From: a virus
Virus genome (UHGV): UHGV-1380525
Length of the DNA stretch: 47,960 bases
Direction: 5' to 3' (one strand)
Shown: piece by piece, positions 1,711-29,718 of the stretch
How the letters are laid out: each line of letters starts with the position of its first letter
Numbering within the stretch: position 1 is the first letter of the stretch
Made by a program: the position numbers and the translations under genes
Notes under the pieces: model-generated
What the model saw: only the letters and a program-made list of their open reading frames with translations
Told to the model about the DNA's origin: nothing
The model's database searches: none

Positions 1711-2110
1711 ACTTACATTAAGTAATGAATAATTTCTATATCCCGAACGTCAGATTTAGAAAGTCATTCAAAACGATGTAACTAAATGATTTTACTTAAT
1801 ATTTTTCTAAAGAACCGAAAAAACACCGAAACACCAAAATCATCAACAAGAAAAAACCCACCTCGCTACACATGAAATTCACATCATTTTAGAACTTTAG
1901 GCCCGCAAGCCGCATGGTTGCTGGGTTTCTTAAAGTCACAAATAAATCCTAATGAAATCTTTCGGGAAATGCCTATAAGATACTTTTTTTACATCAGTGA
2001 CTTACATATTTTTTTAATATAAAAAATAGACTTTAAAACCTCTTAGAGATATAGTAACGCACGTTACAAAACTATTAGCTTGCTATTGTTTATTTATTTT
2101 CACCATCATA

Positions 2111-2139
2111 TTGACGTAGATTGAGCGCCATCGTATAGT
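2111..2139 (+). promoter_or_regulatory. early promoter TTGACG-17-TATAGT. The -35 sits inside the conserved TTGACGTAGATT module.
   Basis: Hexamers and spacing read directly. First gene ATG is at 2171, with an AAGAGG RBS. Confidence 0.65.
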
Positions 2140-2170
2140 TACCACACCAACAACAAAGAGGTGATGAAGA

Positions 2171-2356
2171 ATGACCAAAGCAATCTACACGCGCACTCAA
2201 CTGGAACCAGAAATGGGCGCAGTGAAAGCGCAAAACTTTATGATGGCGCAGGCGATGCATGCATACAGCAACGGTAAGCGCGTCTGTCGCGTTTTTATCG
2301 GCGAAGGCAAGCAGAGAGTGCTTGAGCAGGTTATCGTGTCATCTGGTGGAAACTAA
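2171..2356 (+). CDS. hypothetical early protein, 61 aa
   Basis: ORF track. Strong SD (AAAGAGGTGA). Confidence 0.55.
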   Translation: MTKAIYTRTQLEPEMGAVKAQNFMMAQAMHAYSNGKRVCRVFIGEGKQRVLEQVIVSSGGN

Positions 2357-2371
2357 ACCGGTTTAGCAACG

Positions 2372-2650
2372 ATGAATAAATTACTGGCAGTGGTTTTACT
2401 GGTTATCGCTAACGCAGCAATCGCTGAGACTATATGGGTTACGAAGTATGCATTGACCCGTGGCATTCAGAAGTACGAAAGCGCACAGCTGTTTGCCGAT
2501 GGTCAGGTGGCTGTAGTTGGCGATGTTTACTTTAAACGTGGTGAATACTGGCTTGATGAGCAACAGGCAAAAGAGCATACAGAGACTTTGCGGCAACGCC
2601 GGGTATCTGCACTAATGCGTGAGCTTGAGCGTTTACAGGCGTTTAAGTAA
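2372..2650 (+). CDS. small secreted protein, 92 aa, with an N-terminal signal peptide
   Basis: MNKLLAVVLLVIANAAIAE... hydrophobic h-region followed by an A-x-A-like cleavage site. Confidence 0.55.
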   Translation: MNKLLAVVLLVIANAAIAETIWVTKYALTRGIQKYESAQLFADGQVAVVGDVYFKRGEYWLDEQQAKEHTETLRQRRVSALMRELERLQAFK

Positions 2651-2671
2651 AGAATACTTGTGAGGTGTGTG

Positions 2672-2872
2672 ATGACAAGCAAAAAGAAGGTAGCAGACAA
2701 GAAATTTCAGGATGCAATGCAGGCAGTGCATGCTGCTGGCGAGGACAGGGTGAACTATTGCCTGAGTTTTATCCGAGGGTATCTTGAAAGCACCGGCAAA
2801 ACCGAAATGCTTCACGAATGGGATGATGCTTGTATGCGAATCAAGTTATCTTCTGGCGAGCAAATTCATTAA
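2672..2872 (+). CDS. hypothetical protein, about 66 aa (alternative start at 2660)
   Basis: ORF track. ATG at 2672 is preceded by a GAGGTG-like RBS. Confidence 0.45.
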   Translation: MTSKKKVADKKFQDAMQAVHAAGEDRVNYCLSFIRGYLESTGKTEMLHEWDDACMRIKLSSGEQIH

Positions 2873-2886
2873 CAGAGAGCATAAAA

Positions 2887-3330
2887 ATGACTATAAATAT
2901 TAACGAAGTTCAGGAAATTATTAAAAACCTTGAGAGCGTTGGTGAACTCTCAATCAAAGAGGAAAAATACCTCAAGGTTGCAAGGCTGTGCGTGCAGCTG
3001 GCCGCTGAGAATGTGGCGCTGAAGTCAAAAGGCAAGGAATTGCTCGGCGAAGCATGCGCCGTGTACTCGAGGCTTAATAAACTTATTGATCCATCAATCG
3101 GTGATTTTGTTGATGGTCAGACGCTCCATGAATTCCAGTTTGTTCTCGATGCGGAAACCCCCGTCACCGATCGCATCGTAGCCGGGATTAAGGCTGATGG
3201 GGTGGAGATGTTCGCTCTGATGTTTGCTGAAGAGGCGATCAAAGACAACAACATCACAACCGGCTGGAAAGCCAGAGCAAGCAGAGCGGCCTCTGAATAC
3301 GCAGAGTTGCTGCGCGAGGGTGCCAAATGA
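2887..3330 (+). CDS. hypothetical protein, 147 aa (alternative start at 2830)
   Basis: ORF track. Confidence 0.5.
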   Translation: MTININEVQEIIKNLESVGELSIKEEKYLKVARLCVQLAAENVALKSKGKELLGEACAVYSRLNKLIDPSIGDFVDGQTLHEFQFVLDAETPVTDRIVAGIKADGVEMFALMFAEEAIKDNNITTGWKARASRAASEYAELLREGAK

Positions 3331-14734: not shown

Positions 14735-15203
14735 CTGGAAAGTTATTACGGCCATTATCGGCGTCGCACTGCTGGCGCTGATTATCTACGGGAAGTGGGT
14801 CAATTACGGGAAGGAGAAATATAACTCTGGATATCTGGCCGCCGTAGAGGCACAGAAGGTCAAAGACAAAGAGGCAAGCGAACAACATGAGCAAGACAAA
14901 AAGACCATCGAGCAGGAAGCGCAAGGCCGCATTGATGCCGCGCGTGCTGATGCTTCCGCTGCTGCTGTTAAGTCTGGCAGGTTGCAGCAACAGCTCGCCA
15001 CAATCAGAAAGCAGCTCGTCGATTATTCCCGCGCTGAGTCCATTGGCAATCCAACCGCCAGTACCGGAGTTTTGCTCTCCCAACTGCTCAGCGAATCTGT
15101 CGAAAGAAATCGACAACTGGCAGAATATGCTGACTCAGCAAGAGAAGCGGGATTGACGTGCCAGGCACAATACAACTCCCTCCGTAATAAAAAAGCCCCG
15201 TAA
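14709..15203 (+). CDS. i-spanin (Rz-like)
   Basis: N-terminal TM helix, periplasmic coiled coil. Position after the holin. Confidence 0.75.
   Translation: MILQILKANWKVITAIIGVALLALIIYGKWVNYGKEKYNSGYLAAVEAQKVKDKEASEQHEQDKKTIEQEAQGRIDAARADASAAAVKSGRLQQQLATIRKQLVDYSRAESIGNPTASTGVLLSQLLSESVERNRQLAEYADSAREAGLTCQAQYNSLRNKKAP
14935..15156 (+). CDS. o-spanin (Rz1-like lipoprotein), fully embedded in the +1 frame of the i-spanin (alternative start 14887)
   Basis: Lipobox LSLAG|C. Pro/Ser-rich mature region. Confidence 0.7.
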   Translation: MPRVLMLPLLLLSLAGCSNSSPQSESSSSIIPALSPLAIQPPVPEFCSPNCSANLSKEIDNWQNMLTQQEKRD

Positions 15204-15217
15204 AGGGGCTTTGTTTT
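15191..15217. terminator. bidirectional rho-independent terminator
   Basis: gcccc-gtaaa-ggggc hairpin with A-run and T-run flanks, between convergent units. Confidence 0.75.
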
Positions 15218-20725: not shown

Positions 20726-21814
20726 ATGGAAAAGATTATCTTTACGAAAGGCCTGATCACCAACTCGCAGGTGGTTAGAGAGCAGTGGCGCCATCTGACC
20801 GTTGACCGCAAGGTTTTCATCAATGGTGAAAACGCTCTGGCGAAAGAATACGGTGTGAACGCCACCGCGCTGGTAACGAAAGACTACTGGCGCGAAGTGG
20901 ACGACGTGACCACCCGTGTATTCCGCAACGAGTCCGGCATGGACATGATGGCCGACCTGATGACGCTGGCGACCAACATCAACATCGGTAAGACCGTGGC
21001 AGTTAGCCGCATGGCTTCCGACGCTGGTAAGGTTGTGCGCACCATCTCCGGGCAGGAGCCTGAAGACCTGGATAAAACCCGCTACTCCTACAGCGGCGAT
21101 GTAATCCCGATCTTCAAAACCGGTTATGGCCGTGAGTGGCGTGAGCTGCTGGGTATGCAATCTGAAGGTTTCGACCCGCTGATTGATGACCAGGAAAGCA
21201 CCACCTTCAACCTGCGCGCAGACATGGCGGATTATCTGCTTGTCGGCGATGCAAGCCTGAACGTGAACGGCGTTTATACTGCTTACGGCATCACCAACCA
21301 CCCGAACACCGTGCAGCTCAACCTGAGCACCTCTGGTACTGGCGCGCTGAAAATCGACCTGCAAACGGCAACTCCTGATGAAATCGTTGGGTTCTTCAAC
21401 CAGGATTTCCAGGCGGTTCTGGATGCGCAGAACGTGTTCGAGCCGGTTACTCTGTGGGTATCTCCGTCTGTTCGCCGTTCCTTCAGCCGTCCGTACTCCA
21501 ACGCGGCAGGCTTCAAAGGCGGCACCATTGAGGATTATATCCTCGCATTCGGCAAAACCGGCAACGTTGGCCGCATCGCGTCTATCGGCACCAACTTCAA
21601 GCTGACCGGAAACCATTTCGTCGGCTATGTGAAGAATGCGCTGTATATTCGCCCTCGCGTCGCTCAGCCGGTATCTACCTATGCAGAGCCGCGTACCACG
21701 CCGCACGCTAACTTTAACTTCCTGACCTGGGCTGCTATGGGTTTGCAGGTGAAAAAGGATTTTGCGGGGCGCTCAAAGGTATTTAACGCATACGGTACAC
21801 AAGCAGCACTGTAA
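20726..21814 (+). CDS. major capsid protein, 362 aa
   Basis: Size, position, and strong codon bias typical of a highly expressed gene. Confidence 0.7.
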   Translation: MEKIIFTKGLITNSQVVREQWRHLTVDRKVFINGENALAKEYGVNATALVTKDYWREVDDVTTRVFRNESGMDMMADLMTLATNINIGKTVAVSRMASDAGKVVRTISGQEPEDLDKTRYSYSGDVIPIFKTGYGREWRELLGMQSEGFDPLIDDQESTTFNLRADMADYLLVGDASLNVNGVYTAYGITNHPNTVQLNLSTSGTGALKIDLQTATPDEIVGFFNQDFQAVLDAQNVFEPVTLWVSPSVRRSFSRPYSNAAGFKGGTIEDYILAFGKTGNVGRIASIGTNFKLTGNHFVGYVKNALYIRPRVAQPVSTYAEPRTTPHANFNFLTWAAMGLQVKKDFAGRSKVFNAYGTQAAL

Positions 21815-21820
21815 TTGATA

Positions 21821-21846
21821 AGGGGGGCGTTAGCCCCCTTCTTTAT
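21821..21846. terminator. rho-independent terminator (gggggc-gtta-gccccc followed by a T-rich run)
   Basis: Read directly. Confidence 0.7.
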
Positions 21847-22627
21847 ACCTTATCTCGCCATAAACCATCCACTGAAGCATGTAGCACCACTCCCACTCTG
21901 TAATATCATCCCTTAGCCATCGGCTATTCTTTTTGAAATTATACTCGGCAGGCTCGGCTTTAAGGTTATGCAAGCAATTAACTAGCTCTGGATACACAAG
22001 CCCATTCTTAACAAACCAGTTCACAGGAAGAATATGGTCAATATGCCAAGAGCTTCTATCATCAAAGCTCATCCATGGCTCCATTGTCGACTCTATATGG
22101 TTGACAAATTCATCCTTTGAGTAACCAAGAACTTCATCAATGCTTGAATCAGAAAGAATGGCGCCGATCTTGATATCCATTCTTTCCAGGGCCTTCCTAA
22201 GGAGTAGATGGTGCGGGTTATCCATCATCCATTGTTTTACGTTTTGCAATGCCTTTGCGTTACCATTTTTTGAGTAATACCATTTACGATAAATCTTCCT
22301 TTTCTTTTCCAGGAACGCTTCACGCCTTGAAGGGTCAGACTTTACGCGCCTTATGTAGGCTTTATCTTTTTCTGATTTCTTTTTCCTGTTTTCAGGCATA
22401 GAGTAATATTTGTCATATGATTTTTTCCGGCTAATGCGCTCCTTTTCCTGCCCCTCGCTTGTTGCGCGCTTAGCTCTGGTGAACTCATACAAGCAATCCT
22501 TGCATTTCCCACAGCCAGCAGTAAAGAAAGTAGTGCACCCACACTTTGCGCAAGGGAACTCAGTGCAGACAAACTGCTTTAATCCCTGCTCTCTGGCTTT
22601 AATGGCCAGTTCTTTTCTTGTGGTCAT
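21830..22627 (-). CDS. HNH-type endonuclease with an N-terminal Cys-rich zinc finger, 265 aa
   Basis: C-terminal SSWHIDHILPVN...NCLHNL...N is an HNH-like motif. CxxC x4 N-terminus. AAGGA RBS. Confidence 0.55.
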   Translation of the reverse strand: MTTRKELAIKAREQGLKQFVCTEFPCAKCGCTTFFTAGCGKCKDCLYEFTRAKRATSEGQEKERISRKKSYDKYYSMPENRKKKSEKDKAYIRRVKSDPSRREAFLEKKRKIYRKWYYSKNGNAKALQNVKQWMMDNPHHLLLRKALERMDIKIGAILSDSSIDEVLGYSKDEFVNHIESTMEPWMSFDDRSSWHIDHILPVNWFVKNGLVYPELVNCLHNLKAEPAEYNFKKNSRWLRDDITEWEWCYMLQWMVYGEIRYKEGG

Positions 22628-22670
22628 AGTGTAATCCTTGCTGATTTGGTTTTGCCATCTTAGCACATAT

Positions 22671-22954: not shown

Positions 22955-23773
22955 ATGGCTGTCAGGTACGAAATAAACACAACTCCGGCTGACGGGGAGG
23001 TTTTGCTTAGCGAAACCATGTCAGCAGACTGGACTGCATTGCAGGTGCAGATTGTGCTATTAAACTCTTCCGGCGGCCACGTGCCATTAACAAGCGGCTC
23101 TGTTTCCGTAATGGTATCGCCGTTTGCATCTGGTGACTTCTGGATTGACGTCAACAATAATAATTATTATGGCGTTGCGCTACGACTAAAAGTGATCAAG
23201 TCACAGCTTCCTGCTGGCGTTGCATCCCTGAAAGTCCTGGTGTGGCGAGCTGATACCTCAGTGCCATCAAGTCAGGTTGTCGCGCAGTCCTACTCGGAGC
23301 TTGCCAATAAGCAGGGAAAGCTATTCACCGCATCGCGTCGCGTGACCGATGTTGCTGGCGGGGCCAACCTTGACAGCATTTTTATTACCGGCTCAAAGCA
23401 GGTCGTGTTCAATCAGCGCATCATTGGCTACACCGGTAAAGGTGTTGTAGCGTCAATCTACCGTGGAGCTGTAGCCACTGGCGGCACCGCTGCGGAGATT
23501 AATAACCCAAATGACATCGCACCGCATGCTGCAACGGCACAGATTCTGACTGGCTCTACGATTACAAGTATTGGGCAGCTGACGGTGGCGGCTACGTATA
23601 GTGAAGGGAACGCATCCAATCAGGGTCAGGGCAATTCGCAGGCAAAACTCGGTGAACAGGTCATCATGGCGCCTAATACTACCTACCTGTTACGCATCAC
23701 ATCCCTGGATACTGCGGCACAAAATATCAATGCTTACGTTTCGTGGTTTGAGGATGACGCTTATCTTCCGTGA
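22955..23773 (+). CDS. beta-rich structural protein of unknown role, 272 aa (head or tail accessory fibre?)
   Basis: GGGGG RBS. Gly/Ala/Thr-rich. Followed by its own terminator. Confidence 0.5.
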   Translation: MAVRYEINTTPADGEVLLSETMSADWTALQVQIVLLNSSGGHVPLTSGSVSVMVSPFASGDFWIDVNNNNYYGVALRLKVIKSQLPAGVASLKVLVWRADTSVPSSQVVAQSYSELANKQGKLFTASRRVTDVAGGANLDSIFITGSKQVVFNQRIIGYTGKGVVASIYRGAVATGGTAAEINNPNDIAPHAATAQILTGSTITSIGQLTVAATYSEGNASNQGQGNSQAKLGEQVIMAPNTTYLLRITSLDTAAQNINAYVSWFEDDAYLP

Positions 23774-23780
23774 TAAAAGA

Positions 23781-23805
23781 AAAGCCCCGGAAGGGGCTTT
23801 GTTTG
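23781..23805. terminator. bidirectional rho-independent terminator
   Basis: gcccc-ggaa-ggggc followed by a T-rich run, with an A-run upstream. Confidence 0.75.
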
Positions 23806-24342
23806 CTAAATTCGCATTGGCATAACGATAACCTTGGCAGTCTCGCCAGTAGGCGCATTAATGTTTGCGACGGCGGCGCTGGTGTTTCCATTAAGCTCAA
23901 ATAACACCGCCTCACATTTATGGTTAAACAGCTTCGCCAGCTTCTCTACATCTGCCAGATATTTGGCGTTGAAGCAGATTTGCTCTGTTGCCGCTGTCTG
24001 CTTTGGGATAACACGATCAATGTCAGGGAATCGGCCATAAATCTCAGAGCAGATACCTGCGCCTACCATGATTTCATGCTCGTCATGGTAAGTAACAATA
24101 CCTGTTTTGGTGTCCAGTAGCGCATACGCATAGCGCTTGGTTGGCGACTTGCTGACAGAAACGATAACGTTATCTTTCAATTTATTTTCATGCTTACTGG
24201 AAATCATGGCGCGATGACCGTCAGTAGCGGCAACGCGACCATCAGGCATAAAGCAAATGCCATTCAGGTAATAGCGAGCATCCTGTTTGGCCTGGAACAT
24301 CAATGCGCCTTCAAGAAGTAATTTGCTGATTTTTAATTTCAT
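23806..24342 (-). CDS. truncated DNA polymerase III beta sliding-clamp (DnaN) homologue: domain II plus the distal half of domain III, 178 aa
   Basis: QDARYYLNGICF...VAATDGHRAM matches E. coli beta QDVRYYLNGMLF...TVATDGHRLA. GRFPDIDRVIP matches GRFPDYRRVLP. C-terminal VIVMPMRI matches YVVMPMRL. AAGGTGA RBS. Confidence 0.7.
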   Translation of the reverse strand: MKLKISKLLLEGALMFQAKQDARYYLNGICFMPDGRVAATDGHRAMISSKHENKLKDNVIVSVSKSPTKRYAYALLDTKTGIVTYHDEHEIMVGAGICSEIYGRFPDIDRVIPKQTAATEQICFNAKYLADVEKLAKLFNHKCEAVLFELNGNTSAAVANINAPTGETAKVIVMPMRI

Positions 24343-24515
24343 CACTTCACCTTTATCATGTGTTGTTTTGCAACCTTCAGACATTCATCGAAAATCTTGC
24401 CTTTCTTTTCACTCTGGTTGCGCATGTAGTGGGTAATTGCAGCCTCTATGGCCGCGTTGTCGATGCCCGGCAGTTTTTCGCGCAGGTTTTTCTCTATGAA
24501 TTGCTCGTGGTTCAT
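24342..24515 (-). CDS. hypothetical protein, 57 aa, translationally coupled between ParB-like and clamp-like genes
   Basis: TGATG overlaps at both ends. Hand translation: MNHEQFIEKNLREKLPGIDNAAIEAAITHYMRNQSEKKGKIFDECLKVAKQHMIKVK. Confidence 0.4.
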   Translation of the reverse strand: MNHEQFIEKNLREKLPGIDNAAIEAAITHYMRNQSEKKGKIFDECLKVAKQHMIKVK

Positions 24516-25330
24516 CACAGCTTCTCCAGAATCGCCAGCACTTCATTCAACTCAGCAGAAGGAAGGCGCAAAAATTCTTCTGTCTCCTGTGCCACATGCC
24601 CCTCGGCTACCACCATGTGATCTGCTTCTTTCAGCAACTGAATCAGGCGGTCAATCGGCTTAACTTTTTTGGCCTTGAGGGTTTTCGCCGTCACCTTATC
24701 TTTTCCCTGCGCTTTCGCTTCCTCAACGGCTGCATCAATAACGTTAACAGCATCATCGCCATGCTCACGTGCTACCGCAACGGCGTTGGCATAGCTGATT
24801 TGGCCTGCATTGATGCGTTGCTTGATGGCATCAGGTACATCACCAAGTGACAGGTGCATCTGCACATCAGAAACTGAGCGACCAACCTTCTTGGCGATTT
24901 CTTCATTCGTCCATCCGAACCCTTTCAGGCGCACATAAGCCTTTGCACGCTCAAGCGGGTCAAGCTGCTTTCCTTGACTGGATGACACCATGAAGGCGAT
25001 TTTATCCGCTTCATCGCCGGTGAAGTCTTTGCACTCAATGCGCGCAATTGGTACGCCGCGCTCAATGGCGCGCAATGCGCCAAGATAACGATGCTGGCCG
25101 TCAAGAATCTTGATGCGCTTTCCGTCGGCATCAGGAATAACAGTTAACGCCGGGATTGGCTGGCCTGATTCCCAGCACTGCGCGAAGTATTCAACGTGCT
25201 GCTCATCGGCTTCGCGGATGTTGTATCCCGGCTCAAGATAAAGCTGGTCGACAGGAACCTGATAACCTTTGTTGACCACGATTCCGCCGCGAGTTTCTTT
25301 GTCTGAGTAAATTTTTCCGAGAGATGTCAT
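24515..25330 (-). CDS. ParB-like nuclease-domain protein (ParB/Srx N-terminus plus HTH), 271 aa
   Basis: IKILDGQHRYLGALRA is the GxxRxxA ParB box. HTH at WTNEEIAKKVGRSVSDVQ. GAGGAAAAG RBS. Confidence 0.7.
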   Translation of the reverse strand: MTSLGKIYSDKETRGGIVVNKGYQVPVDQLYLEPGYNIREADEQHVEYFAQCWESGQPIPALTVIPDADGKRIKILDGQHRYLGALRAIERGVPIARIECKDFTGDEADKIAFMVSSSQGKQLDPLERAKAYVRLKGFGWTNEEIAKKVGRSVSDVQMHLSLGDVPDAIKQRINAGQISYANAVAVAREHGDDAVNVIDAAVEEAKAQGKDKVTAKTLKAKKVKPIDRLIQLLKEADHMVVAEGHVAQETEEFLRLPSAELNEVLAILEKL

Positions 25331-25340
25331 CTTTTCCTCA

Positions 25341-25454
25341 CTTTGATAAACAGATTGCGCTGGCAATGGCGAATCCGATAACGATTAATGCCAGCTTTAT
25401 TTTGAAGTTGCGCCATGCTTTAAGGTCTTCTTTGCGGATTTCGTGGCGAATCAT
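25341..25454 (-). CDS. 37-aa single-TM micro-protein
   Basis: ATGA-coupled to the upstream gene. Hydrophobic KLALIVIGFAIASAICL segment. Confidence 0.3.
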
Positions 25455-25729
25455 TGGGATTCTCCGAGTGCTTTTGCGATTGCAGCTTTAGCTTCCGAGG
25501 TATTAACGTAGATGCATGCGCGAGCTTCTAAATCCAGCAGTGCTTCCAGCAATTCAGGCGCGGCGGCGATGAGATTGGCATCTTCGCGCTGATAAACCGT
25601 ATCGCAAATGCATTCGCCATCCTCACCAAAAATAACTTCCAGATGGGTTAATGATTTATTATTCCAGTGCTGGCCCTTTTCATTCACTGACCACGGCCCC
25701 GGCGTACCTTTGAATTCATTCATCTTCAT
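25451..25729 (-). CDS. Ead/Ea22-like small protein, about 92 aa
   Basis: GPWSV...GECICD...DANLIAAAPELLEALLDLEA resembles the Ea22 domain of 3874..4431. AGAGGTGA RBS. Confidence 0.5.
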   Translation of the reverse strand: MKMNEFKGTPGPWSVNEKGQHWNNKSLTHLEVIFGEDGECICDTVYQREDANLIAAAPELLEALLDLEARACIYVNTSEAKAAIAKALGESQ

Positions 25730-25763
25730 CACCTCTAACATTTATTGTTGTTTCTACGTCATC

Positions 25764-25792
25764 ACTATAGCGACACCCTCAATCTACGTCAA
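25764..25792 (-). promoter_or_regulatory. leftward promoter TTGACG-17-TATAGT inside the conserved module. A second CTACGTCA copy lies at 25754-25761.
   Basis: Identical hexamers to the 2111 promoter. Confidence 0.6.
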
Positions 25793-25799
25793 CACTTTA

Positions 25800-25808
25800 T
25801 GATAAAAT
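25800..25808 (+). promoter_or_regulatory. rightward extended -10 promoter TGaTAAAAT
   Basis: Read directly. Confidence 0.5.
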
Positions 25809-25953
25809 TAAACCAACAACACTCACCCCGCGCTGTTCCGTCCTGAAAAACGTAAGGCGGCGAAATTGGATATAGCAATCGGCGTTATCGTCATGGCGTT
25901 TTCGCTGGTTCAGGTGTACAGATGCTGGAAGTTCATCATTCGGAGAATAATTA

Positions 25954-26241
25954 ATGAGAGACGCGCTTCAGCACGCCGCAAACCAGATAATTAGTGGCAC
26001 TGTCGGCCAGGTAATCGACAAAGCCGGTTATACATCCATCGGCACGGGTCTTGGCCTGAAAGTGGCAGAGCAGACGCCAGTCGCACAATCATACATTGCC
26101 TCAATGATCCCCCATTCGATTACCGAGTGGGCAGCGGTAGCCTCTATACTTGGCGCGTTGTCACTGGTGGCAAAAAACCTTTTTGAGATGTGGTGGAAGA
26201 TTCGGGAGAGCAAAAAGAATGGCAGCACCGACAGCAAGTGA
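25954..26241 (+). CDS. hypothetical protein with a C-terminal hydrophobic helix, 95 aa
   Basis: ORF track. Confidence 0.5.
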   Translation: MRDALQHAANQIISGTVGQVIDKAGYTSIGTGLGLKVAEQTPVAQSYIASMIPHSITEWAAVASILGALSLVAKNLFEMWWKIRESKKNGSTDSK

Positions 26242-27874: not shown

Positions 27875-27951
27875 TGGTTCCCGCGACAGGATTCGAACCT
27901 GTAATCATCCGATTATGAGTCGGGTGCTTTAACCAGTTAAGCTAAACTGGA
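27875..27951 (-). tRNA. tRNA-Met(CAT): tRNA-Met/Ile2-like (anticodon CAT) with a degenerate acceptor stem
   Basis: Hand-folded cloverleaf: D-stem GCTT/AAGC, anticodon loop CTCATAA, T-arm ACAGG-TTCGAAT-CCTGT, encoded CCA. Two acceptor pairs (4-69 A.G and 7-66 U.C) are non-Watson-Crick. Confidence 0.55.
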
Positions 27952-27954
27952 ATT

Positions 27955-28031
27955 TGGTGCACCATTCAGGATTCGAACCTGAAACCCAGAGGATAGAAGC
28001 CTCTTGCGCTATCCAATTACGCTAATGGTGC
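27955..28031 (-). tRNA. tRNA-Arg(TCT): tRNA-Arg (anticodon TCT)
   Basis: Acceptor GCACCAT/ATGGTGC is perfect. Anticodon stem AGAGG/CCTCT with loop CTTCTAT. T-loop TTCGAAT. CCA encoded. Confidence 0.85.
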
Positions 28032-28037
28032 TGAATG

Positions 28038-28125
28038 TGGCGGATAGTACAGGATTCGAACCTGTGAACCGTTTCCGGTTTATCGGTTAGCAACCGACTG
28101 CTTTCGGCCTCTCAGCCAACTATCC
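28038..28125 (-). tRNA. tRNA-Ser(GCT): tRNA-Ser (anticodon GCT), type II with a long variable arm
   Basis: Acceptor GGATAGT/ACTATCC. Anticodon loop TTGCTAA. 16-nt variable arm. T-arm ACAGG-TTCGAAT-CCTGT. CCA encoded. Confidence 0.85.
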
Positions 28126-29511: not shown

Positions 29512-29536
29512 TAAAGAAAACCCCCGAAAGGGGGTT
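29508..29536. terminator. bidirectional rho-independent terminator
   Basis: aaaaccccc-gaaa-gggggttt followed by T7. Confidence 0.8.
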
Positions 29537-29718
29537 TATTTTTTCAGCAATGAAGATACGCGGATTCTCCACAATGACAAGTTAGCGAGCGATACCGCTA
29601 ACTCCATGTGAATCAATCTAAGTTTTTCAATATCAACAAAGACCGGGGCGTTGTATTGTTGATTGCTTCTTATGTACTTTGAAATAGTATCAGCATCATT
29701 ATTATCAAGAGTCATCAT
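29536..29718 (-). CDS. hypothetical protein, about 60 aa
   Basis: ORF track, with the start trimmed to the MMM cluster that has a GAGGAGA RBS. Confidence 0.4.
   Translation of the reverse strand: MMTLDNNDADTISKYIRSNQQYNAPVFVDIEKLRLIHMELAVSLANLSLWRIRVSSLLKK

Follow-up and report, generated by a model that had tools for sequence, protein, structure and literature searches.

In bacteria, the beta sliding clamp (DnaN) is the central hub on which the replication and repair machinery docks, and it is a target for antibiotics. Its partners, among them the alpha, epsilon and delta subunits of DNA polymerase III (Pol III), Pol II, Pol IV and Pol V, MutS and MutL, Hda and RecB, carry clamp-binding motifs (of the QL[SD]LF type) that dock in a cleft between domains II and III, and we know of no clamp partner that does not use this site. 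Escherichia coli reportedly also makes beta*, an ultraviolet-inducible product of an internal start in dnaN (said to have been described by Skaliter, Paz-Elizur and Livneh in 1996), which begins near domain II, keeps the whole of domain III and is reported to act as a processivity clamp. Here we describe a natural protein of 178 amino acids (aa) that is reduced further than beta*, having only half of domain III and one inner helix fewer. It is encoded by the last gene of a five-gene minus-strand cassette in the virus genome UHGV-1380525 (47,960 nucleotides; the whole of this stretch was analysed and is referred to as the window), where its companions are a ParB-like protein and three small proteins. 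Set against full-length DnaN (E. coli beta, about 366 aa in three domains, with six units and six inner helices per protomer; PDB 1MMI, 1JQJ), it has neither domain I nor the dimer interface, its domain III lacks the first half and its domain II the second inner helix. We refer to it as a half-clamp.

Monomeric E. coli beta (I272A/L273A) likewise forms no ring and has an intact cleft, but it is a laboratory mutant of the full-length protein; the same is true of the cleft-deleted beta-C mutant, from which it is known that the last five residues of beta are essential to cleft function (PMC3022782). The phage protein is much shorter than either, and its cleft is predicted. Phage interference with the clamp hub is also represented by Gp168 of phage Twort (PDB 7EVP), a small protein with no relation to the half-clamp that attaches to the ring of the host, whereas the half-clamp would mimic the docking site of the ring.

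Retained and lost parts of the clamp

The gene and its two parts are as follows.

23806–24342, minus strand: the whole open reading frame (ORF) of the 178-aa short clamp, last in the cassette
24004–24342, minus strand: residues 1–113, the equivalent of domain II (E. coli beta ~135–249), with the motifs QDARYYLNG, ATDGHR and GRFPDIDRVIP
23806–24003, minus strand: residues 114–178 and the stop codon, the C-terminal half of domain III (E. coli beta ~310–366), with the motifs ICFNAKYL and VIVMPMRI

The initial annotation, made from the sequence alone, had proposed beta-clamp homology on the strength of the first three of these motifs and VIVMPMRI, all of which are present and align as claimed. The protein matches PHROG 3007 over its full length (E 4.4e-57; residues 1–178 on profile positions 1–186 of 190) and the NCBIfam dnaN model TIGR00663 at E 2e-10 (40.1 bits, below the cut-off of 137.65), and as a single sequence it gives sub-threshold Pfam matches to DNA_pol3_beta_2 (residues 18–61, 18.3 bits) and DNA_pol3_beta_3 (residues 113–177, 17.5 bits; cut-off 27). 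When a profile of 102 diverse relatives was compared with the PDB, E. coli beta and other solved clamps were found at E 1e-26; no solved structure of a short family member turned up there. BFVD holds many viral models of 180–210 aa with the same fold (template-modelling scores 0.8–0.9), and an AlphaFold2 model built from the 102-relative alignment was of high quality (predicted local distance difference test score 96.5, predicted template-modelling score (pTM) 0.90). The beta-clamp fold, whose absence from such searches would have told against the annotation, is thus present, and there can be very little doubt about either the identity of the half-clamp or its architecture.

In the alignment, residues 6–113 correspond to beta 135–249 (domain II) and residues 115–178 to beta 310–366, the latter with a score of 70.5 (the first half of domain III scored 27.5); neither profile nor alignment gave a match to domain I or to beta 251–309. 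The description of the protein as having one and a half domains, domain II plus the C-terminal half of domain III, is therefore borne out by the alignment. The model shows, in order, a strand, a helix (7–16) and three strands; a strand followed directly by three strands, with no helix; the FPD..RV turn; and a helix (126–139) with three strands. It thus has three beta-alpha-beta-beta-beta units with just two long helices, strands 59–63 and 73–77 being joined without one, and the second inner helix of domain II, which faces the DNA (in E. coli the segment RKGVIELMRML), is replaced by a 9-residue loop. In all 102 relatives this loop is of 7–14 residues and the link to the last unit of 5–15 residues, and from this uniformity the architecture appears to be family-wide. 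The number of residues of the model that superpose on one beta chain is so large that the last 65 residues must pack on the domain II part as in a native clamp. To judge from clamp topology, what survives would be the unit that bears the partner-binding cleft: the sheet crossing from domain II into domain III, the two helices that support it, and part of the second sheet of domain II.

The residues I272 and L273 lie in the dimer interface of beta, and their mutation makes it monomeric (PMC3022782). Both sides of the head-to-tail interface, domain I and the I272/L273 segment, are absent from the alignment of the 178-aa protein; a normal three-domain dimeric ring is therefore impossible, as the initial annotation had supposed. 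Since domain I and the first half of domain III carry the ring-closing surfaces, neither encirclement of DNA nor entry into the host ring is to be expected.

Could the short gene be an artefact of assembly or of a frameshift, as would be suspected if homologues in related phages were full-length three-domain DnaN proteins? Close and distant relatives prove to be equally short: all 120 of the closest database proteins have 178–193 aa, the 150 best-matching of the diverse cluster representatives are nearly all of 170–220 aa and align end to end, and the linker and loop lengths are uniform across the 102 relatives. An artefact is thereby excluded.

Conservation of the cleft

The cleft was defined by 22 residues of E. 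coli beta, compiled from published beta–peptide structures. Subsite 1 comprises L155, T172, G174, H175, R176, L177, P242, R246, V247, V360 and M362, and subsite 2 comprises R152, Y153, Y154, N320, Y323, V344, S346, P363, M364, R365 and L366. Among these, H175, N320, M362, P363, M364 and R365 have been placed in the cleft (PMC6511837). The 178-aa protein is identical to E. coli beta at 17 of the 22 positions, and the other five changes are conservative. This agrees with the proposal of the initial annotation that the retained segments are those that build the clamp-binding cleft, and the hydrophobic cleft between domains II and III is accordingly predicted to be kept.

Conservation within the family was assessed in the 102 relatives, which are 25–49% identical to the window protein. 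The mean frequency of the commonest residue was 0.70 in the cleft columns and 0.36 in the others (Mann–Whitney p 7e-8), and cleft positions made up 12 of the 22 most conserved columns (hypergeometric p 1.6e-7). Twelve columns were nearly invariant, ten of them in the cleft (R23, Y25, L26, T40, G42, H43, P106, Y128, M174 and P175) and two flanking it (D21 and G28).

A large and loosely annotated family

At E up to 1e-3, 1608 representatives of clusters formed at 50% identity are matches (some of the weaker ones may be full-length DnaN), and a match is carried by 285 phage records, in 268 of them over at least 80% of the query; the recorded hosts include Salmonella, Escherichia, Vibrio, Klebsiella, Burkholderia, Proteus, Pseudomonas and Pantoea. 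A profile scan of genome contigs returned chiefly genuine full-length dnaN, matching just residues ~7–170 at 26–38% identity. The family includes PHROG 3007 genes of small siphoviruses such as Bcep781 gp15, gene 16 of the Salmonella phages Skate and seszw, and the gene of Klebsiella phage DP01, whose product is 98% identical to the window protein.

The gene itself is not new: it is in the databases, loosely annotated. GenBank names include 'DNA polymerase III beta subunit', 'DNA clamp protein' and, for Bcep781 gp15, 'DNA Pol III b subunit fragment'. PHROG 3007 is labelled 'RusA-like Holliday junction resolvase', and this or 'Holliday junction resolvase' has spread to many RefSeq records and to the DP01 annotation of the gene (window 23806–24384). 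That label is a mis-annotation, for neither sequence nor fold shows any RusA, and both identify a fragment of the beta clamp. A literature search covering truncated or DnaN-like clamps, sliding-clamp-like phage proteins and phage-encoded clamp-binding proteins yielded no study of the family. The earlier remark that no phage system of this composition had been described must therefore be qualified, the gene family being large and long annotated as a Pol III beta subunit or fragment; it is a functional study that was not found, and we could not find any prior description of a natural family of cleft-only half-clamps.

Genomic contexts

The closest relatives of the cassette are in phage DP01 (PP824815.1), to which the region 23700–25850 is 99.7% identical, and in siphoviruses of 45–49 kb that infect Klebsiella, Salmonella and Escherichia, including the genus Skatevirus, as well as in a handful of records that bear the names of Vibrio, Aeromonas or a virus from bat faeces (85–96% identical). 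Of the 44 viral contigs in this Skatevirus-like lineage with a clamp identity of 64% or more, 42 have the order ParB-like gene, 57-aa gene, clamp gene; in relatives the 57-aa gene is always directly upstream of the clamp-like gene. Across relatives the ParB-like proteins can be 99–100% identical while the clamps are only 70–94% identical, an uncoupling that points to mosaic exchange.

The junction between the ParB-like and 57-aa genes (24515–24518) is an insertion hot spot in relatives. In the window it is empty, with stop and start overlapping; elsewhere it contains nothing, about 0.25–0.7 kb of other sequence, a C5-cytosine methyltransferase gene, or this with an endonuclease VII gene (insertions were seen in locus L007 at 1880–3317 and in loci L014, L020, L030, L031, L033 and L042).

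Away from this lineage the surroundings are quite different. Among 40 divergent loci (37–66% identity) a ParB-type gene was nearby in only two (L050 and, weakly, L052), and in a further scan of 45 prophage-like loci it was nearby in none; ParB is absent from the vicinity in relatives below about 57% clamp identity, which are the majority of the loci sampled below 67%. In 23 of the 40 divergent loci a lambda O-type initiator gene lies immediately 3' of the clamp gene, followed by a gene for DnaB helicase or lambda P; a CII-like gene lies 5' of the clamp gene in 22, and a member of the S24 repressor family is found up to four genes upstream in 32, so that the order is that of a lambdoid cII, half-clamp, O, P region. 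The 45 other prophage-like contigs have an ORF6N-domain gene immediately 5' in 31 cases, an integrase gene three or four genes 3' in eight, and sometimes a Band_7 gene 5'. In Dhillonvirus an Nmad5 gene is directly 5' of the half-clamp gene, which is reverse-oriented among capsid genes; in Kagunavirus and Bcep781 the half-clamp gene stands alone, again reverse-oriented, amid portal, head and other structural genes; and in Skarpretter, Gungnir39 and Vibrio phage R19R it is found amid genes for methyltransferase, helicase, primase and single-stranded DNA-binding protein (SSB). This variety of settings (with ParB; between cII and O/P or DnaB; with ORF6N; with Nmad5 or methyltransferases; or alone), in which there is no constant phage-encoded neighbour, argues for a host rather than a phage partner.

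A Dhillonvirus example is Escherichia phage vB_EcoS-101114BS4 (locus L010, 2676–3440), where the gene adjoining the half-clamp matches the Pfam family Nmad5 at E 1e-54. Nmad5 and the ParB-like protein show no similarity. A single mutation in Nmad5 lets Dhillonvirus phages escape the Tmn defence, in an account that does not mention the adjoining clamp gene (PMC11846954), and a literature search directed at Nmad5 yielded no study of the half-clamp family.

Dispensability in phage seszw

The half-clamp of Salmonella phage seszw (Skatevirus) is about 70% identical to the window protein, and seszw has been subjected to CRISPR-based iterative genome reduction (PMC9825161). We took dispensability from the deposited mutant genomes, counting records that carry each gene at 99% identity or more:

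major coat gene: 72 seszw records
ParB-like gene: 70 of these 72 near-identical records
half-clamp gene: 47 seszw records

About 25 mutants have thus lost the half-clamp gene. In seszw_150S and seszw_170L genes 16 (half-clamp) and 17 (57-aa) are missing, and genes 18 (ParB-like) and 19 are retained. Most other seszw mutants (MZ375299–MZ375333, e.g. MZ375322.1) share one 173-bp deletion that removes the 57-aa gene alone and leaves the half-clamp gene in place. Since the mutants are viable, neither gene is needed for growth in plaques on the laboratory host; the half-clamp gene is an accessory and, in this relative, a dispensable one.

Possible roles of the half-clamp

What might such a protein do? 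It is probably an accessory with which the phage manipulates its host. Derived from bacterial DnaN and devoid of dimer interfaces, it should neither encircle DNA nor join the host ring; expressed from a host-type promoter with a ParB/KorB-like protein and three small proteins, it would present a soluble cleft, off the DNA, able to bind the clamp-binding motifs of host proteins, and by competing with the host clamp it may divert or tie up some of the clamp interactome in infected cells. Of the roles put forward in the initial annotation (a decoy for host clamp-binding proteins, a poison subunit of host beta, and a PCNA-like trimeric ring), it is the decoy that stands as the best reading, and we tentatively favour an off-DNA, cleft-only competitor for host clamp-binding motifs; the loss of the interfaces and of the inner helix speaks against the other two roles. 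Deletion of beta residues 362–366 destroys the function of the cleft, and it proved impossible to clone a monomeric beta whose cleft was intact, which suggests that such a protein is dominant-negative (PMC3022782).

Several points weigh against a competitor. Only part of the list of subsite 1 residues was checked against a paper, and F278, which lines subsite 2 in E. coli beta, falls within the missing half-domain (PMC6511837). The cleft is changed in some members of the family, for example to MPARV in Skarpretter and to STNGHM in Vibrio phage R19R. As the cleft is the best-conserved part of DnaN generally, its prominence here is due in part to the way in which the family was found. The literature search yielded no data on binding, toxicity or localisation for any member. 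Finally, because the phage has no DNA polymerase of its own, a protein that strongly sequestered Pol III or the clamp loader would hurt the phage as well. This need for host Pol III makes a selective competitor, or one of moderate affinity, more plausible than a general poison of replication, and candidate partners are translesion polymerases, mismatch repair proteins, Hda, free delta and RecB. The nuclease activity of RecB, and DNA degradation by it, have been reported to depend on clamp binding (bioRxiv 10.1101/2025.08.20.671105). It is possible, as a more speculative generalization, that half-clamps are a widespread and hitherto unrecognised class of host-takeover or counter-defence proteins, natural mimics of the clamp that titrate proteins with clamp-binding motifs off the host ring, the candidates being SOS-induced translesion polymerases, MutS and MutL, Hda, the delta subunit of the clamp loader, and RecB.

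Other explanations have the cleft, or the protein, work for the phage more directly. The cleft might be a positive adaptor that brings host Pol III (through alpha or epsilon) or the clamp loader to the phage helicase–primase or to an O/P-type initiation complex. This would help a phage that encodes helicase, primase, SSB and recombinase and no DNA polymerase to capture the host replicase, and it is favoured by the position between cII and O (23 of the 40 divergent loci having the O-type initiator immediately 3', then DnaB or lambda P) and by the placing of the gene amid primase and helicase genes in Gungnir39 and Skarpretter. We nevertheless consider it unlikely, because seszw can do without the gene, many copies are found amid structural genes or close to an integrase and distant from replication genes, no phage-encoded neighbour to which it could bridge is conserved across lineages, and no canonical clamp-binding motif occurs above chance in the proteins of the window: four patterns searched in its 92 ORFs gave a single match, QMHLSL in the helix-turn-helix (HTH) of the ParB-like protein, against about two expected by chance by our estimate, and it was not treated as a motif. 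Less likely still is a single machine made up of the half-clamp, the 57-aa protein and a ParB-like protein that loads on phage DNA. The initial annotation had seen ParB and clamp as a single module, and the part of this idea that holds is the adjacency and translational coupling of the three genes here and the persistence of the trio in 42 of the 44 viral contigs mentioned above. The module does not extend beyond the Skatevirus-like lineage (2 of 40 loci below 67% identity and none of 45 further loci have a ParB-type gene near the clamp gene); within it, genes for C5-methyltransferase and endonuclease VII have been inserted between the ParB and 57-aa genes in relatives, the mosaic exchange noted above uncouples ParB (99–100% identity) from the clamp (70–94%), and about 25 seszw mutants do without the clamp, while the ParB-like gene is kept in 70 of 72 records. 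A survey of ParB folds makes no mention of a beta-clamp partner.

Two further readings concern a ring. A beta dimer or PCNA trimer consists of twelve units, so four protomers of three units each could in principle assemble into a tetramer closed around phage DNA for its transactions, and in the model sheet edges appear to be exposed at both ends of the protein and might pair; E. coli beta* is also said to act as a trimer. Such an assembly is very improbable when one of the three inner helices to be expected is a loop of 7–14 residues throughout the family, both natural ring-closing surfaces are absent, the monomer is modelled as compact with great confidence (pTM 0.90), the gene is dispensable and no clamp loader is encoded. 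Homology to beta and the same exposed edges could be invoked for a half-clamp that teams up with a beta protomer of the host, so as to break or block its ring, but with the dimer interface missing (domain I and the equivalents of I272 and L273 in domain III) we give this the least credence of all.

The cassette and its expression signals

The cassette (25741 to 23806) lies between head genes (major capsid gene at 20726–21814) and further virion genes. Its layout, promoter, gene overlaps and terminator hairpin were confirmed as the initial annotation gave them; the features other than the clamp gene are listed in the order of transcription.

25764–25792, minus strand: sigma-70-like promoter TTGACG-17-TATAGT (promoter scan), its -35 region being one copy of a phage-wide motif, TTGACGTAGATTGA
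25753–25761, minus strand: second copy of TGACGTAGA, just downstream of the promoter
25451–25741, minus strand: ORF for a 96-aa protein, PHROG 1273
25338–25454, minus strand: ORF for a 38-aa peptide whose C-terminal segment, LALIVIGFAIASAICL, is hydrophobic; the start codon overlaps the stop of the 96-aa gene (ATGA)
24515–25330, minus strand: ORF for the 271-aa ParB/Spo0J/KorB-like protein, PHROG 1033, from an ATG after the ribosome-binding site GAGGAAAAG
24342–24515, minus strand: ORF for a 57-aa protein, PHROG 4439, translationally coupled on both sides (TGATG)
23777–23804: GC-rich hairpin (AAAGCCCCTTCCGGGGCTTT at 23781–23800) with flanking A- and T-runs, resembling a bidirectional intrinsic terminator

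The overlaps are CAATGA (96-aa and 38-aa genes), CTGTGATGAAC / CTGTGATG (ParB-like and 57-aa genes) and AAGGTGAAGTGATGAAA / AAGTGATG (57-aa and 178-aa genes). The last junction supplies a good Shine–Dalgarno sequence, the 178-aa start at 24342 having the ribosome-binding site AAGGTGAAG; an alternative start chosen by many gene callers, the ATG at 24384 that would give 192 aa, has no ribosome-binding site and lies within the 57-aa gene.

A promoter scan of 23500–26200 found exactly one promoter-like site, at 25792–25764 on the minus strand (10 of 12 matches). A single such site is not above chance (3.5 expected), but its -35 region belongs to a repeated motif that is: the window has 18 occurrences of TGACGTAGA when one mismatch is allowed, against 6.1 expected, and none of 100 shuffled sequences reached 18. 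The main copies of TTGACGTAGATTGA are at 2112(+), 9114(-), 14016(-), 16805(-), 25791(-) and 30624(-), with the extra copy at 25761(-); TATAGT follows at the cassette promoter and at 2112. All six main copies are 40–350 nt 5' of blocks of small genes on the same strand, mostly minus-strand blocks among virion genes. Such an arrangement suggests a single family of promoters under common control, probably early ones; the extra copy 3' of the cassette -10 could be an operator. Two 96-aa ORFs that lie behind the shared motif were compared and are not paralogues.

The hairpin at 23777–23804 separates the convergent ends of the cassette and of the plus-strand gene upstream. Elements of the same build (A-run, GC-rich hairpin, T-run; AAGAAAAGCCCCGGAAGGGGCTTTGTTT type) occur at 859–886, 15189–15216 and 29514–29541 as well, and all four look like bidirectional intrinsic terminators.

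The 271-aa protein is of the ParB/Spo0J/KorB type and is predicted to bind DNA. Its Pfam matches are HTH_ParB (43.4 bits, cut-off 22.6) and KorB (27.9 bits, cut-off 22.3), and residues 41–193 match Spo0J (1VZ0) at E 1.4e-11, over both the N-terminal domain and the HTH. These are features shared with the ParB/Spo0J/KorB proteins that act as DNA clamps switched by cytidine triphosphate (CTP), but the GERRxRA box, which binds CTP in them, is replaced by LDGQHRYLGA (DGQHRYLGA in place of the box itself), which makes nucleotide use uncertain, and the annotation of DP01 includes no ParA. The name 'ParB-like nuclease' used in the initial annotation is a historical one for the N-terminal domain of ParB. 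No match to a nuclease family was found for the 271-aa protein, and there is no other sign of a nuclease in it. No parS site was identified, the repeated TGACGTAGA at the promoter being a candidate site only. Nor does 'Ea22-like' hold for the 96-aa protein, whose match to PF13935 is sub-threshold (E 0.038, 15 bits against a cut-off of 27). The five cassette proteins gave no match to PADLOC defence models at E up to 0.01.

As annotated in the near-identical DP01, the phage has genes for helicase, primase, SSB, recombinase and exonuclease VIII, and none for a DNA polymerase or a clamp loader. The window differs from DP01 on the capsid side of the cassette, where the major capsid gene is followed by 905 nt (44 nt in DP01) before the next gene on the plus strand, a gap occupied by a minus-strand ORF of 278 aa (21830–22666; 265 aa from the first ATG). 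Its product has Cys-rich CxxC pairs near the N-terminus and an HNH-looking stretch (WHIDHILPVNW...NLKAEPAEYNFKKN) and no Pfam match, and the ORF is possibly an insertion of the homing-endonuclease type. Three tandem minus-strand tRNA genes (Met-CAT, Arg-TCT and Ser-GCT) at 27875–28125, in the virion-gene region, form a set that is also present in DP01.

Significance

With the 'RusA-like Holliday junction resolvase' label that had been propagated through the databases corrected, the half-clamp is marked as biology by its defined architecture, the selective conservation of its cleft, its recurrent site before lambdoid replication genes and its shown dispensability. If the protein is indeed a competitor for clamp-binding motifs, a single 20-kDa product would let a phage reprogramme the whole clamp interactome, an idea that can be tested at little cost, since a close relative is already available as viable deletion mutants. 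A natural cleft-only protein of 178 residues would also be a ready-made minimal probe of, or competitor for, the clamp hub. Half-clamps are carried by thousands of phages, including lambdoid prophages in which the gene directly precedes that for the replication initiator, and this spread suggests a common way for phages to tune the replication, repair or DNA-degradation machinery of their hosts.

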